A stretch of DNA of 64,000 nucleotides from Hydrogenophaga sp. GTDB taxonomy: Bacteria; Pseudomonadota; Gammaproteobacteria; Burkholderiales; Burkholderiaceae_C. The stretch covers positions 2,446 to 66,445 of the forward strand of contig NZ_JADMKB010000114.1 of NCBI RefSeq assembly GCF_018780075.1. The letters are read 5' to 3'. Each line of letters begins with the position of its first letter. Positions within the stretch are counted from its first letter, which is position 1. Of this stretch, positions 18,279 to 56,195 are shown piece after piece. A model generated the notes under the pieces. It was not told the origin of the DNA and did no database searches. It was given only the letters and a program-made list of their open reading frames with translations. A program made the translations under genes and the position numbers.

Positions 18279-19145
18279 GTGAATCCGGTTCTGAAGTTCC
18301 TCCGGCAACGGACCACCCTGCAGCTCGCGCTCGGGGTGTCCGTGGCCGTGCACGCCGCCTTGCTGACCGTGCGTTTCGTCGACCCCGAACGTTTCAACCG
18401 GGTGTTCCAGGACACGCCGCTGGAGGTCATCCTCGTCAACGCCAAGAGCGACGAAAAACCGGAGAAGGCGCGGGCCATCGCGCAGGCCTCGCTGGCCGGT
18501 GGCGGCGATGCCGAAAAAGGCAGGGCCACCTCGCCGCTGCCCCCCGTGACACAGGCCCGGCTGGGGGACACACCGGAAGAAGACGAGCGCATGATCGAAG
18601 CGCTGAAGGAGCGGCAGAACCAGATCCTGGCCCAGGTGCGCCAGCAACTGGCCACCCTGCCCCCGCCCGACCTGCAGGCTGTCAATCCGAGCCCGGACGC
18701 GGCCGAGCGGGAGAAAAAGCGCCAGGCACTGGTGAAGATCCTGGCCGAAATCGAGAAGCGCATCAACGAAGAAAACGCGCGCCCCAAGAAGCGCTACATC
18801 AGCCCGGCCACGCGCGAAGAGGTCTATGCCATTTACTACGACGAGCTGCGCCGCAAGATCGAAGACCGGGGCACCACCAACTTCCCCGAGGCGGCCGGCC
18901 GCAAGCTCTATGGCGAGCTGACCATGGTGATCACGGTGAACCACACCGGCGCGGTGATCGACACCGAAATCGTCCAGACCTCGGGCAACACCACGCTCGA
19001 CCGCCGCGCGCAGTCGATCGTGCGCAGCCTCGGCTTCGGGCGGTTCAACGACAACATGCGCCGGCGCGCCGACCAGATCGTGGTGGTCTCGCGCTTCCGC
19101 TTCACGCGCGACGCCACCTTGCAAACGCAATTGAGTTCGCAGTAG
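18279..19145 (+). CDS. TonB C-terminal-domain protein
   Basis: GTG start and an N-terminal TM helix (LQLALGVSVAVHAALL). The C-terminal region YGELTMVITVNHTGAVIDTEIVQTSGNTTLD resembles the TonB C-terminal domain. Confidence 0.7.
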   Translation: MNPVLKFLRQRTTLQLALGVSVAVHAALLTVRFVDPERFNRVFQDTPLEVILVNAKSDEKPEKARAIAQASLAGGGDAEKGRATSPLPPVTQARLGDTPEEDERMIEALKERQNQILAQVRQQLATLPPPDLQAVNPSPDAAEREKKRQALVKILAEIEKRINEENARPKKRYISPATREEVYAIYYDELRRKIEDRGTTNFPEAAGRKLYGELTMVITVNHTGAVIDTEIVQTSGNTTLDRRAQSIVRSLGFGRFNDNMRRRADQIVVVSRFRFTRDATLQTQLSSQ

Positions 19146-19150
19146 ATGAA

Positions 19151-19240
19151 CACCCCCGCCGCGCTGCGCGCGACCCCCTCAAGGGGGCAACACCAGCGGC
19201 CCGGCGAAGCCGGTTCCGCGGTGTTCTTGGCGGGCTTCCC
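19151..19240 (+). repeat. REP-like three-hairpin repeat, copy A
   Basis: CACCCCCGCCGCGCtgcGCGCGACCCCCtcaaGGGGGcaaCACCAGCGGCCCGGCgaaGCCGGTTCCGCGGTG, immediately after the stop of the TonB-like gene. Confidence 0.8.
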
Positions 19241-20056: not shown

Positions 20057-20140
20057 TCCCCCCTGTGCCGCTTCGCGGCTTCCCCCCAGGGGGACGACAC
20101 CAGCGGCCGGGCCAAGCCCGTTCCGCGGTGTCTCTGGGTT
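20057..20140 (+). repeat. REP-like repeat, copy B
   Basis: TCCCCCCTGTGCCGCttcGCGGCTTCCCCCCaGGGGGAcgaCACCAGCGGCCGGGCcaaGCCCGTTCCGCGGTG, directly after the mtgA stop. Confidence 0.8.
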
Positions 20141-21826: not shown

Positions 21827-22375
21827 ATGCGCATCCTTGGCATCGACCCCGGACTGCAGTGCACCGGCTTTGGCGTGGTCGACACCGAAGGCGCCGACCT
21901 GCACTACGTGGCCAGCGGCACGATTCAGACCAGTCCGAAGGACGGCGCCCTGCTGCCGGAGCGGCTAAAAATCCTGTTCGACGGCATCAGCGAGGTGGTG
22001 AAACGTTACCAGCCCGAGGTCTCGGCCTGTGAGATCGTGTTCGTCAACGTCAACCCCCAGGCCACCCTGCTGCTGGGTCAGGCACGCGGCTGCTGCCTGA
22101 CCGCGCTGGTGGCCAACGGCTTGACGGTGGCCGAGTACACCGCGTTGCAGCTGAAAAAAGCCGTGGTCGGCTACGGCCGTGCCGACAAGGCGCAGATGCA
22201 GGAGATGGTGAAGCGGCTGCTGAAGCTGCCCGGCCTGCCCGGCAAGGACGCGGCCGACGCGCTGGGCCTGTGCATCACCCACGCGCAGGTGGCGCGCTCG
22301 GTGGCGGCGATCAACAAGGTGTCGCCACTGCAGGCGCGGACACACGCGGCCTACAAGGGCGGTCGGAGTTACTGA
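21827..22375 (+). CDS. ruvC: Crossover junction endodeoxyribonuclease RuvC
   Basis: [18 protein letters not shown]... from the internal ATG 21827. 182 aa. Confidence 0.93.
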
Positions 22376-22387
22376 CTCCGCTTTTTT
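22364..22387 (+). terminator. Intrinsic terminator of ruvC
   Basis: CGGAGT-tactg-ACTCCG followed by CTTTTTT. The loop and stem contain the ruvC TGA. Confidence 0.7.
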
Positions 22388-22446
22388 CGCCCAGGTTTCT
22401 CATCGTTTCACCCTTCGGGACACGGTCCGCGTGGGCAGGGGCAGGA

Positions 22447-22768
22447 GGCCCGGGTGTTCGTTCTCCGTCCCACCTCTCGGGCGGCTGCCCGTGCGCTCTG
22501 CCGTTGCTTCATCAACACGGTTGTAGCGAACCACCGCGTGCGCAACCGCGAATGGGGCCTCCGCCCGCCCACCCAACCCACCTGCCCCCAAAGTGATGTG
22601 CGAGCGAACCAGCTGGCTCGCCGACATGTCTTTGGGGACGGTGGTGGCTCCCCCGGGCGCAGGCACCATTCGCCGTTACCACAGAGGCGGTTCACCAGAC
22701 CAGTGTTGACGAGGGAACGGCTGTGCGCCCAATCACCCGACGGCGAGCGTGGGCCGGAGAACGGGGGT
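22447..22768. repeat. Approximately 320-nt imperfect palindrome / extended hairpin centred on CAGCTG (22610-22615)
   Basis: Paired blocks read by eye: 22459-67 with 22755-63 (9 bp), 22469-73 with 22749-53, 22500-05 with 22716-21, 22512-18 with 22703-09, 22548-55 with 22666-73 (8 bp), 22562-67 with 22654-59, 22586-93 with 22630-37 (8 bp), 22596-99 with 22624-27, and 22601-05 with 22616-20. No credible ORF on either strand. Confidence 0.75.
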
Positions 22769-22843
22769 GACGCCATCGGCCCGCGCGAGGTACATGCGCG
22801 AAAACCAGGCACTCCAAAAACCGTTCAAAGAGGACGCGGAAAC

Positions 22844-23020
22844 TCAGAGCAAACGCTCAAGCACCAGGATGCCGAAGAACCCCAGCGCAGCAAACAGGGC
22901 CACCTTGAGAACCACCCAGCCCCAATGCAGGTAGCGTGGGTTGCGGGTGACGGCGTAGGCCGCGAAGCACACGCCCGAGACGATCAGCAGCAGAACCAGC
23001 GCGAAGCGCAGCAACAGCAT
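22844..23020 (-). CDS. Small two-helix membrane protein (58 aa) downstream of lpxC
   Basis: Not in the track (under 60 aa). MLLLRFALVLLLIVSGVCFAAYAVTRNPRYLHWGWVVLKVALFAALGFFGILVLERLL*. Third codon positions are almost all G/C. It starts 24 nt after the lpxC stop. The SD is weak. Confidence 0.5.
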   Translation of the reverse strand: MLLLRFALVLLLIVSGVCFAAYAVTRNPRYLHWGWVVLKVALFAALGFFGILVLERLL

Positions 23021-23043
23021 GGTCTGGGTCGCTCGGGCTGGGC

Positions 23044-23967
23044 CTACCAGGCCGGGGCCAGCTGAGCGAAACCGCTGGGGGCCTCGCGCTCGTGGTCGAA
23101 GCTCACGACCTCGTAGGCCTCGGGCTGCGCCAGCAGCGCGCGCAACAGCAGGTTGTTCAGCGCGTGGCCGCTGCGGAAGGCGCTGTAGGCGGCCAGCAGC
23201 GGCTTGCCGATGATGTAGAGGTCGCCGATGGCATCAAGGATCTTGTGTTTGACGAACTCGTCCTGGTAACGCAGGCCGTCGGCGTTGAGCACCTTGACGT
23301 CGTCCATCACAATGGCGTTGTCCAGCCCACCGCCGAGCGCCAGGCCGTGGGACCGCATCATCTCGACATCACGGGTGAACCCGAAGGTGCGGGCCCGGGC
23401 GATCTCGCGCGCATAACGCCCGCTGCCCATGTCGAACTCCACGCGCTGGCCGCTGGAGTTCACCGCCGGGTGATCGAACTCGATCTCGAAGGCCAGTTTG
23501 TAGCCATGGAACGGGTCCAACCGCGCCCATTTGAGCGAGCGGCCCTCACCCTCTCGCACCTCCACCGGCCGCTTGAGCCGGATGAACCGCTTGGGCGCCT
23601 TCTGCATGGCGATGCCGGCGCTCTGGAGCAGGTAAACAAACGAGGCCGAGGAGCCGTCGAGGATGGGGACCTCTTCGGCCGTGATGTCCACGTACAGGTT
23701 GTCCAGACCGAGCCCGGCGGCGGCGCTCATGATGTGCTCGATGGTCTGCACCTTGACGCCACCGTTGGAGATCGTCGAGGCCATGCGCGTGTCGGACACG
23801 GCATCGGCATTGACCGGAATCTCCACCGGCTCGGGCAGATCGACGCGGCGGAACACGATGCCGGTGTCGGGCGCGGCCGGCCGCAGCGTCAGCTCCACGC
23901 GCTGACCGCTGTGCAGACCGACGCCAACCGCCTTGGTGAGAGATTTCAGGGTGCGTTGAGCGAGCAT
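23044..23967 (-). CDS. lpxC: UDP-3-O-acyl-N-acetylglucosamine deacetylase
   Basis: [31 protein letters not shown]... full length, 307 aa. Confidence 0.96.
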
Positions 23968-24059: not shown

Positions 24060-24165
24060 CAGCGCCCCTGCGAGCGAGCGCCGGGAACGCCGTGGAACCG
24101 GCTTTGCCGGGCCACCAGCGTTGTCCCCCCTCCGGGGGGAAGCGGCGCAGCCGCGCAGGGGGGAA
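24060..24165 (-). repeat. REP-like repeat, copy G (reverse orientation)
   Basis: The reverse complement reads CCCCCCTGCGCGGCtgcGCCGCTTCCCCCCggaGGGGGGacaaCGCTGGTGGCCCGGCaaaGCCGGTTCCACGGCG. It lies between the ftsZ stop and the lpxC start. Confidence 0.8.
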
Positions 24166-25379: not shown

Positions 25380-25569
25380 GTTGCTCTCCTGGGTGTGCCC
25401 TTGACCGCTGGGTTCCGGGCGTTGTTTCAATTCAAAAAATCGGATTCGGTTCGTCGTGCTGTGGGGCGCCTCAGCCAGGCGGTCCGGTGCAATCGGCGCA
25501 TCGGGATCGGGGAAGAGGCCGGGTCCGAGCCGACAAGGGCAGCGTCGATCTGGCTCCGCCAGTCGACAG

Positions 25570-25617
25570 GTGCCGCCCCCTTGAGGGGGTGACGCGCGAC
25601 AAGCGCGGCGCAGGGGT
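25570..25617 (-). repeat. REP-like repeat, partial copy J (first two hairpins only)
   Basis: The reverse complement reads CCCCTGCGCCGCGCttgtcGCGCGTCACCCCCtcaaGGGGGCGGCAC. It lies in the 252-nt ftsA-ftsZ spacer. Confidence 0.65.
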
Positions 25618-25631
25618 GATCAATGGCGTCA

Positions 25632-44224: not shown

Positions 44225-44310
44225 GCCAAGGGGGTGCGGCGGAACCGGCTCTGCGGGGCCGCCAGGGCCACCTCCTTGAGGGGGTCGCGTGCAGCGCGGT
44301 GGGGGAGGGT
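44225..44310 (-). repeat. REP-like repeat, copy H (reverse)
   Basis: The reverse complement reads CCCCCACCGCGCtgcaCGCGACCCCCtcaaGGAGGtGGCCCTGGCGGCCCCGCagaGCCGGTTCCGCCGCACCCCC. Confidence 0.75.
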
Positions 44311-50119: not shown

Positions 50120-50200
50120 GCGCCAGGATGCGGCGGAACCGGCTTCGCCGGGCCGCTCGCATCGCCCCCTTTGAGGGGGTCGCGCGCAGCGCGGCGGGGG
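50120..50200 (-). repeat. REP-like repeat, copy I (reverse; inverted relative to copy C)
   Basis: The reverse complement reads CCCCCGCCGCGCtgcGCGCGACCCCCtcaaaGGGGGCgatgCGAGCGGCCCGGCgaaGCCGGTTCCGCCGCATCC. Confidence 0.8.
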
Positions 50201-50209
50201 TGTTTCTTT

Positions 50210-56042: not shown

Positions 56043-56125
56043 CCCCCCCGCGCCGCCTGCGGCGTCACCCCCCGGAGGGGGGCGCCACTGGCGGCCCGGC
56101 AAAGCCGGTTCCGCGGTGGCCTGGA
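56043..56125 (+). repeat. REP-like repeat, copy D
   Basis: CCCCCCCGCGCCGCctGCGGCGTCACCCCCCggaGGGGGGCGCCACTGGCGGCCCGGCaaaGCCGGTTCCGCGGTGGC. It lies between the binding-protein gene and the first permease gene. Confidence 0.8.
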
Positions 56126-56195
56126 GGGGGCTTCGCTGCGCTCGCCGCGAGGGCTCATCCCGCCCTCCTCCGCTTTCATTTGATTGATCTTTCCC

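Follow-up and report, generated by a model that had tools for sequence, protein, structure and literature searches.

The non-coding gap between ruvC and a gene for a 58-aa protein in a Hydrogenophaga metagenome-assembled genome (MAG) probably holds an old, decaying copy of a non-autonomous intergenic repeat of the Burkholderiales, one that resembles the repetitive extragenic palindromic (REP) doublets forming hairpins (REPINs) and bacterial interspersed mosaic elements (BIMEs) but is built from giant units. The gap (468 bp, positions 22376-22843, from the ruvC stop to the stop of the 58-aa gene) separates two convergent genes in a 64,000-nucleotide (64-kb) stretch of this MAG, hereafter the window. 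We show that the family is multi-copy, dispersed, intergenic and variable in presence among relatives, that it is modular and polar, and that the stem of its module covaries. Furthermore, what is conserved is not the giant hairpin that the palindrome at first suggests but a hairpin module of ~160 nt that is specific to one strand. This family of ~357-base repeats is undescribed in the databases and literature that we searched.

The initial annotation of the gap described a giant imperfect palindrome, and all the paired blocks that it listed are found in place: CGTTCTCCG (22459-67) pairs with CGGAGAACG (22755-63), GCGAATGG (22548-55) with CCATTCGC (22666-73) and CCCCAAAG (22586-93) with CTTTGGGG (22630-37), around the centre CAGCTG at 22610-15. 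A blastn alignment of the gap with its own reverse complement places the palindrome at 22459..22763 (73.2% over 314 columns, E 2.8e-33), with a weaker symmetry that reaches out to 22414-22802 by local alignment. Repeat finding resolves it into concentric inverted repeats of 94 nt (70%), 15 nt (93%) and 14 nt (86%) plus the central palindrome. Folding both strands as RNA, the check proposed with the palindrome, gave -182.2 kcal/mol for the + strand (z -5.1) and -204.1 kcal/mol for the - strand (z -8.0), with 0 of 100 shuffles as good in either case. As the initial annotation had also observed, the mismatches of this one copy carry no strand information (G.U 4 on the + strand vs 10 on the - strand, the latter being 10 A.C; transversions predominate); polarity emerges at the level of the family.

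The family was retrieved with a 25-mer, GGGCGSWGGCMCCRTTCGCSGTYRC, that is near-invariant in the family and conserved in both window arms (22538..22562 on the - strand and 22651..22675 on the + strand) as well as in L088, the ruvC locus of a relative. Used as a DNA pattern against metagenomes, it matched at least 120 stretches, many of which contain two opposite-strand matches ~110-115 nt apart, the geometry of the window. The family figures that follow come from 120 listed loci (810 kb) among these matches. Using an nhmmer profile, we found 137 copies in these loci, of which 72 are full length, most of them 353-364 nt; each copy shows a clear polarity, with roughly 270 bits in one orientation vs 145 in the other. 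The window copy is itself full length (357 nt, 22432..22788) and scores 267 bits in one orientation and 139 in the other. By BLAST, homology (65-81%) spans all of 22429-22803 and rises to 92-100% in short blocks, and the family block GCGAGCGTGGGCCGGAGAACG (22743..22763, + strand in the window; BLAST and alignment) is 100% identical in many copies. Several contigs carry at least two copies, and the 17 copies beyond the index copy correspond to ~1 per 50 kb of host genome, a rough figure that is biased by the way the loci were retrieved.

The copies are variable in their arrangement and in their presence. There are tandem arrays (L159, L187, L200), deletion derivatives and solitary units (L101, L146, L165, L193, L218). 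Paralogue pairs are 92-96% identical with unrelated flanks, and orthologous sites differ in whether the element is there (the window vs Hydrogenophaga sp. A37; L159 vs L218). The hosts of one abundant subfamily have Piscinibacter, Methylibium and Rhizobacter as their nearest named relatives (FadD 87-93%), and a 793-kb contig of this group lacks the tandem pair of L159 and has a solitary module elsewhere, at an unrelated site. A subfamily of the Hydrogenophaga type, which shares 78-81% identity with the window copy, occupies two other convergent gaps, one between an acyl-CoA synthetase and a gamma-glutamyltranspeptidase (GGT) facing each other and one between two facing ABC transporters.

Copies lie between genes, and the median distance to the neighbouring gene is ~97 nt on either side. 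Based on gene calls made with a crude GC3 filter, their contexts are tandem in 34 cases, convergent in 20 and divergent in 4; the small number of divergent contexts indicates that promoter regions are avoided. Gene 3' ends are favoured. Neighbouring genes are ordinary housekeeping or metabolic genes (hemL/purH, dut-coaBC/pyrG, soxA-like, glmU-like, transporters), and no recurrent partner gene was seen among the neighbours of the sampled copies. Neither the window copy nor a consensus-like copy has a real match in 72,556 plasmids and 50,697 phages (a 36-nt match in a Citrobacter plasmid is due to chance), and IMG/VR gave 0 matches. Four exact conserved blocks retrieved 0 papers from the searchable literature, where we also found nothing relevant on palindromic repeats, miniature inverted-repeat transposable elements (MITEs) or REPINs in Comamonadaceae or Burkholderiales.

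To describe what is conserved in the family, we used an alignment of 57 full copies (A2) and an alignment of 47 units re-aligned on one strand (A4). Mean column identity in A2 is 69%, and near-invariant blocks are CGTTCTCCGGCCCACGCTCGCGGG, CATCAACACC and ACCGCGAATGGGGCCTGCGCCCG, with their reverse complements in the other arm. The giant hairpin is thermodynamically dominant in 56/57 copies, with a mean of -247 kcal/mol vs -198 kcal/mol for a fold into two local hairpins, and in the variable regions the arms are genuinely complementary. Covariation nevertheless favours the local fold: 92.6% of cells are paired in the two local hairpins vs 87.8% in the giant hairpin, with a covariation of 0.192 vs 0.134. 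Column 28 fails to pair with column 142 in 4/57 copies and with column 371 in 21/57; likewise, column 253 fails to pair with column 371 in 2/57 copies and with column 142 in 25/57. Since these discriminating columns favour their local partners, it is the two local hairpins that constitute the conserved fold. Comparisons between copies give the same picture. In close copies 198 single changes break arm-to-arm pairs and 0 are compensated, and at 80-90% identity compensated double changes number 52 in the module stems vs 15 in arm-to-arm pairs. The giant hairpin of the initial annotation is therefore real and energetically dominant, but as the conserved structure it is ruled out by the covariation at discriminating columns and by the lack of cross-arm compensation in close copies. 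What that annotation missed is the pair of strand-specific ~160-nt hairpins.

The single units confirm this architecture. A solitary half-element forms one long hairpin that has CATCAACACC at its tip. In A4 the units fall into two types, L and R; the sequence of the basal stem is not the same in the two, yet each stem is self-complementary. Across the 34 pairs of A4, 96.7% of cells are paired vs 79.8% after shuffling, and covariation is 0.449 vs 0.146 for shuffled alignments (0 of 500 shuffles reach the observed value), with slid controls at or below 0.106. In the basal helix (helix 1), 16 of the 22 pairs are compensated. The module thus has a 22-bp basal stem, variable in sequence with its pairing kept, and a near-invariant, purine-rich internal loop in which GGCGCA faces GGAGAA. 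It also comprises two short helices that hardly vary, a distal arm of ~70 nt that does vary and, close to the tip, a conserved GGTGTTGATG. Stem covariation together with near-invariant blocks among copies that are only ~69% alike says that a specific partner probably reads the folded strand.

Each unit prefers one strand. The left unit folds better on the - strand in 54/57 copies (-99.7 vs -85.9 kcal/mol) and the right unit on the + strand in 55/57 (-101.8 vs -89.1 kcal/mol), an asymmetry (Wilcoxon p ~1e-10) that is the same with DNA parameters. Furthermore, 12/13 solitary units fold better on the strand that carries GGTGTTGATG, and an independent module in L218 gives 114 bits with the covariance model vs 27 on the other strand. 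The element as a whole has no strand preference (27/57 copies). In the window, the left module is L-type (22433..22592, - strand as sense and better-folding strand, covariance model 117.8 bits) and the right module is R-type (22629..22788, + strand as sense, 125.9 bits vs 18.6 on the opposite strand), both scores being those of members of the model's training set. Between them lies a variable apex or spacer (22593..22628, delimited from sequence, repeats and family alignment) that holds the CAGCTG at 22610-22615. From the position and sense of the modules it follows that the palindrome is two modules joined 5'-to-5', across the variable apex. The two modules are related but distinct, and it is their 5'-to-5' placement that gives the whole 357 nt the look of one giant hairpin.

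A fold conserved on one strand may also point to an RNA. Under this explanation the module would be a multi-copy structured RNA, acting as a cis stabiliser in 3' untranslated or intercistronic regions, as a processing site or as a small RNA whose GGUGUUGAUG tip serves for pairing or for protein binding, and the DNA palindrome would merely be two RNA modules facing outwards. We consider this unlikely, while noting that a good part of the data is compatible with it. Helices covary on one strand (16/22 pairs compensated, asymmetry in 54-55/57 copies), stems vary while loops stay constant, and the covariance model separates the strands well (126 vs 19 and 114 vs 27 bits). Some U.G pairs are invariant or nearly so, the pair 46:129 occurring in 47/47 units and 22:154 in 40/47. 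Copies favour sites downstream of genes, and the upstream gene reads into the sense strand in 8/11 solitary units. However, this last count is not significant and includes duplicate loci, and full elements in tandem contexts have a polarity unrelated to gene direction (12 vs 12). The apex is GC-rich and variable, the flanks hold no conserved promoter-like or terminator-like sequence, close relatives tolerate the loss of the core or of one module, and DNA energy parameters give an equal strand asymmetry. No Rfam family matches: with Rfam 15, 6S included, the window gives only miRNA-precursor noise (24-26 bits vs gathering scores of 124-200), and in 10 further loci with copies the element itself has no match.

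These data also speak against a single large 6S-like RNA, one of the three options of the initial annotation, given the lack of an Rfam family, of a strand preference for the whole element and of an orientation bias, and the loss of the core or of an arm in relatives. The predicted fold does share a rod-like shape with 6S RNA, but 6S RNA is encoded in single copy, measures ~180 nt and has a central bubble, whereas the element here is multi-copy and palindromic at the DNA level.

Among those three options, a MITE-like element comes closest to what we found, in that the family is dispersed, multi-copy and intergenic with paralogues that are 92-96% identical; the hallmarks of a MITE in the strict sense, target-site duplications and a parent insertion sequence (IS), were not seen. 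A classical cut-and-paste MITE would be an internally deleted IS of the DDE type with long terminal inverted repeats, mobilised in trans by its parent IS. The palindromic, non-coding nature of the element, its homogeneous size (mostly 353-364 nt) and its presence/absence polymorphism would all fit, as they do for the Correia/NEMIS, RUP and Nezha MITEs, which are likewise non-coding, size-homogeneous and multi-copy, have hairpin potential and vary in presence between strains. Such MITEs, however, are defined by target-site duplications and by terminal inverted repeats that match an IS, neither of which was found here. Three groups of 92-96% identical paralogues show no common direct duplication at the ends of homology, and they provide no clean empty/filled pair. 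The ends of the element are fuzzy and differ by subfamily, conservation is best in the internal loops and the hairpin tip rather than at the termini, and solitary modules are complete hairpins and not truncated ends. Finally, the sampled loci have no transposase between or beside the modules, and plasmids, where IS elements abound, gave no match. Accordingly, we regard a cut-and-paste MITE as very improbable.

The history of the element can be read from relatives at the same site. The gene order, with ruvC facing the 58-aa gene that lies directly downstream of lpxC, is kept across Hydrogenophaga, Tepidimonas, Macromonas, Serpentinimonas and others. The gap between ruvC and the 58-aa gene is usually 1-58 nt (most Comamonadaceae), with an insert of 107-233 nt in some species and of 0.5-3.3 kb in others. 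Hydrogenophaga sp. A37, the closest species representative (91% DNA identity across the region), has 30 unrelated nt there. Given the short gap elsewhere and these 30 unrelated nt, the window gap represents a lineage-specific insertion at a hot spot. The 58-aa protein is identical in several genomes, and a search with it yielded three further variants of the gap. In L086 the gap is 155 nt and corresponds to the outer flanks of the window (87-93% identity) without a core of ~312 nt; the deletion junction falls in an imperfect direct repeat (ACGG...GCGTGGGC...GGAG) whose left and right members are at 22422..22448 and 22740..22766 (both + strand) in the window and bound the missing core. In L088 the gap is 313 nt, with the flanks, the apex and the right arm kept at 71% identity and the left arm, that is the left module, gone; the whole gap folds no better than shuffles, while its right module is still intact (79 bits). 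In L091 the left flank alone remains (52 nt). By DNA identity in ruvC the window groups with L086 and L091 (94%), with L088 and A37 further out (92%). This grouping, together with the gap variants, indicates that the element predates a small Hydrogenophaga group and was deleted repeatedly, and that the copy of the window clade is ancestral and decaying.

The window copy itself bears the same signs. Of the 57 copies it has the lowest stability on the + strand and one of the lowest on the - strand (-192/-215 kcal/mol vs a mean of ~-250), and several conserved family blocks carry substitutions. Its modules barely beat shuffled sequences when folded as RNA: the left one has -82.6 kcal/mol (z -2.0) and the right one -71.5 kcal/mol, whose z of -0.4 shows it to be degenerate. 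The low stability, the low z values, the block substitutions and the deletions in relatives mark the window copy as old, inactive and decaying.

Some observations would suit a one-off event confined to this genome, be it a local inverted duplication of which a relic remains or an error of assembly. There is no second copy in the window, A37 has only its 30-nt gap at the site, and in the Logan assembly of run SRR28062255 the contigs end on either side of the palindrome core (L082 at window position 22479, L092 at 22796). These breaks occur though the arms have no common exact repeat longer than ~15 nt, and they may reflect a drop of coverage over the hairpin or strain heterogeneity at the site. 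Against such an event, more than 100 unrelated loci show this architecture of two modules, the arms agree at only 73%, in contrast to those of fold-back chimeras, and homologous partial versions lie at the same site in relatives. The NCBI assembly GCA_049295595.1 (contig JBAQQY010000071.1) has the identical 468-bp gap, in which no gene is annotated, and the independent Logan assembly has part of it, so that an artefact of one assembly can be dismissed. We therefore exclude both a local duplication and an assembly artefact, and with them the relic inverted duplication that the initial annotation had offered as its remaining option. The search for copies that it had proposed thus found none elsewhere in the window, where no other long inverted repeats were found either, but it did find them in the wider family and, as partial versions, in close relatives.

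For a REPIN/BIME-like repeat, we propose the following scenario. The folded single strand, either single-stranded DNA at replication forks or RNA, would be recognised by a putative trans-acting protein, which would copy the element into new intergenic sites. RAYT transposases are thought to copy REPINs to new sites, and the putative protein may act in the same way. Copies would then decay by point mutation and by deletion stimulated by the palindrome. The element probably entered the gap between ruvC and the 58-aa gene in an ancestor shared by a small group of Hydrogenophaga species. At present it is likely to act passively, as a strong bidirectional hairpin between convergent units that may serve as a barrier to read-through or as a stabiliser of 3' ends.

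The comparison with REP, REPIN and BIME sequences of E. coli, Pseudomonas and Stenotrophomonas, whose transposases are RAYTs of the Y1 HUH type, supports this reading in several respects. In both cases the unit is an extragenic imperfect palindrome with strand polarity that is multi-copy within genomes (here 137 copies in 120 loci, with several contigs holding at least two) and occurs as singlets, as inverted doublets that form one long hairpin across a spacer, and as clusters. In both, copies lie mainly downstream of genes, are inherited vertically and decay, and no target duplication is seen. The family differs in its dimensions, with a unit of ~160 nt vs 20-40 nt and a doublet of ~357 nt vs ~100 nt, and in the make-up of the doublet, which joins two distinct types of unit; their basal stems both pair despite their different sequences. 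No tag of the GTAG/CGTC type is visible in the invariant blocks, and no RAYT or associated gene was found beside the sampled copies.

Several points weigh against a REPIN/BIME-like repeat. We found no transposase, RAYT or other candidate mobilising gene adjoining any sampled copy (810 kb), and a tblastn probe with an approximate IS200 TnpA query gave no match. Neither a target-site duplication nor a defined cleavage site was seen, and the modules are ~4x longer than classical REPs. Strand-specific folding and conserved G.U positions suit an RNA function as well as single-stranded DNA. Much of the stem covariation is a single L/R split inherited by many copies, so that the counts above are of positions and not of independent events. 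The 64-kb window has a single copy, and the ruvC loci of 80 related species (~680 kb) have none, a scarcity which implies that activity in Hydrogenophaga is low or extinct; in those ruvC loci no homology to the gap was found at E 1e-3, and the covariance model returned noise of 20-23 bits. Lastly, any role as terminator or insulator at ruvC/lpxC is one that we infer.

One locus, L206, carries an ORF in the apex of the element. This ORF (1560-2309, - strand, 249 aa, with homologues of 233 aa) is the sole one that we found between two modules, here at 1298-1478 and 2351-2537 in an element that lies between hemL and purH, and it encodes a protein of the T5orf172/GIY-YIG type. The gene has a GC content of 49%, whereas that of the host genes on either side is ~66%. 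Members of its family in Polaromonas, Hylemonella, Gallionella, Herbaspirillum and Herminiimonas are 75-97% identical. As the Hylemonella homologue follows a type I restriction-modification operon, the evidence suggests a mobile gene of the defence-island type. That it is the element's own gene is ruled out by its GC content and by the Hylemonella, Polaromonas and Herbaspirillum homologues, which have no modules nearby; since homologues elsewhere are not flanked by modules, the gene of L206 is cargo that landed in the apex.

The covarying basal stem, the near-invariant purine-rich loop, the conserved tip and the strict strand polarity together lead us to a more specific proposal, which we put forward tentatively and hold to be rather less probable than the REPIN/BIME-like reading as such: the module may be the recognition substrate of a putative trans-acting enzyme or RNA-binding protein, representing either a REPIN-like system in which the units are giant and the mobilising protein is new, or a multi-copy class of structured RNA in the Burkholderiales. 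In this respect integron attC sites and the ends of IS200/IS605 elements offer a parallel, as they too conserve structure over sequence, have one functional strand and keep conserved unpaired bases within a variable stem. Unlike these, the copies here have no integrase or TnpA nearby and are dispersed rather than arranged in cassette arrays, the module is much longer, and attC R and L boxes are not visible in the conserved blocks. The 127-bp ERIC/IRU sequences of Enterobacteria and Vibrio and the YPAL sequences of Yersinia are also longer imperfect intergenic palindromes that are conserved across genera and have no known transposase; they lie in transcribed intergenic regions and can affect mRNA stability. 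The family here is ~3x longer, modular with its two hairpins, and found in Burkholderiales, and the likeness is one of description, with no sequence relationship claimed.

The surroundings of the gap are as the initial annotation described them. On the left, ruvC (21827..22375, + strand, gene call) ends in an intrinsic terminator (22364..22390, + strand) that lies outside the repeat and consists of a stem CGGAG/CTCCG overlapping the stop codon followed by a T-run. RuvC has its best match in Hydrogenophaga sp. A37 (98% protein identity), and a RuvC search retrieves Hydrogenophaga genomes. On the right, the - strand carries the 58-aa gene, lpxC and ftsZ. The conserved 58-aa gene (22844..23020), the last of the ftsZ-lpxC string, encodes a hydrophobic, membrane-type protein with no real Pfam family and only a sub-threshold CopD match. 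No sigma-70-like promoter was found in window positions 22000-23300. A protein-coding reading of the gap is ruled out, in agreement with the initial annotation, which had seen no credible ORF there: for ORFs inside the gap GC1/2/3 is flat at ~0.6-0.7 vs 0.67/0.43/0.89 in the flanking genes, and none of them matches Pfam. A metagenome scan with a spurious ORF of 134 aa as protein query returned 600 pattern matches, none of them confirmed.

Other inserts were observed at the same site. The largest include a gene for a 749-aa dCache/PAS histidine kinase (L085, L087, L089), next to a 58-aa protein identical to that of the window. A second, shorter intergenic repeat family of ~70-95 nt, a C5/G5 hairpin with the core ACACCAGCGGCCCGGCGAAGCCGGTTCCGCGGTGT, fills the gap in several Hydrogenophaga species (e.g. 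L007, L011, L015, L016, L019, L022, L028) and matches 17/80 relatives' loci; the window holds seven copies of it (19141-19240, 20069-20131, 24079-24162, 25530-25622, 44239-44305, 50133-50204 and 56047-56134). In addition, copies of the large repeat lie again within ~1.5 kb of ruvC (L119/L179) or lpxC (L146, L172, L190) in distant hosts, whose RuvC is 66% and LpxC 72-74% identical to that of the window. This may be a coincidence among 120 loci.

REP, REPIN and ERIC repeats shape bacterial genomes as terminators, as determinants of mRNA stability, as hot spots of recombination and deletion and as causes of assembly breaks. To our knowledge, the mechanism is known for few families of this type. 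The present family stands out by its size and its modular build. Its annotation is now possible in Hydrogenophaga and in Piscinibacter/Methylibium-like genomes, and the gap between ruvC and the lpxC operon provides a clear case of an insertion/deletion hot spot between two essential gene clusters. Using the profile and the covariance model, phylogenetic profiling over complete Burkholderiales genomes could identify the partner of the module. If the module is indeed the substrate of such a partner, it would define a new REPIN-like system or a new RNA class, absent from Rfam and from the literature searched.

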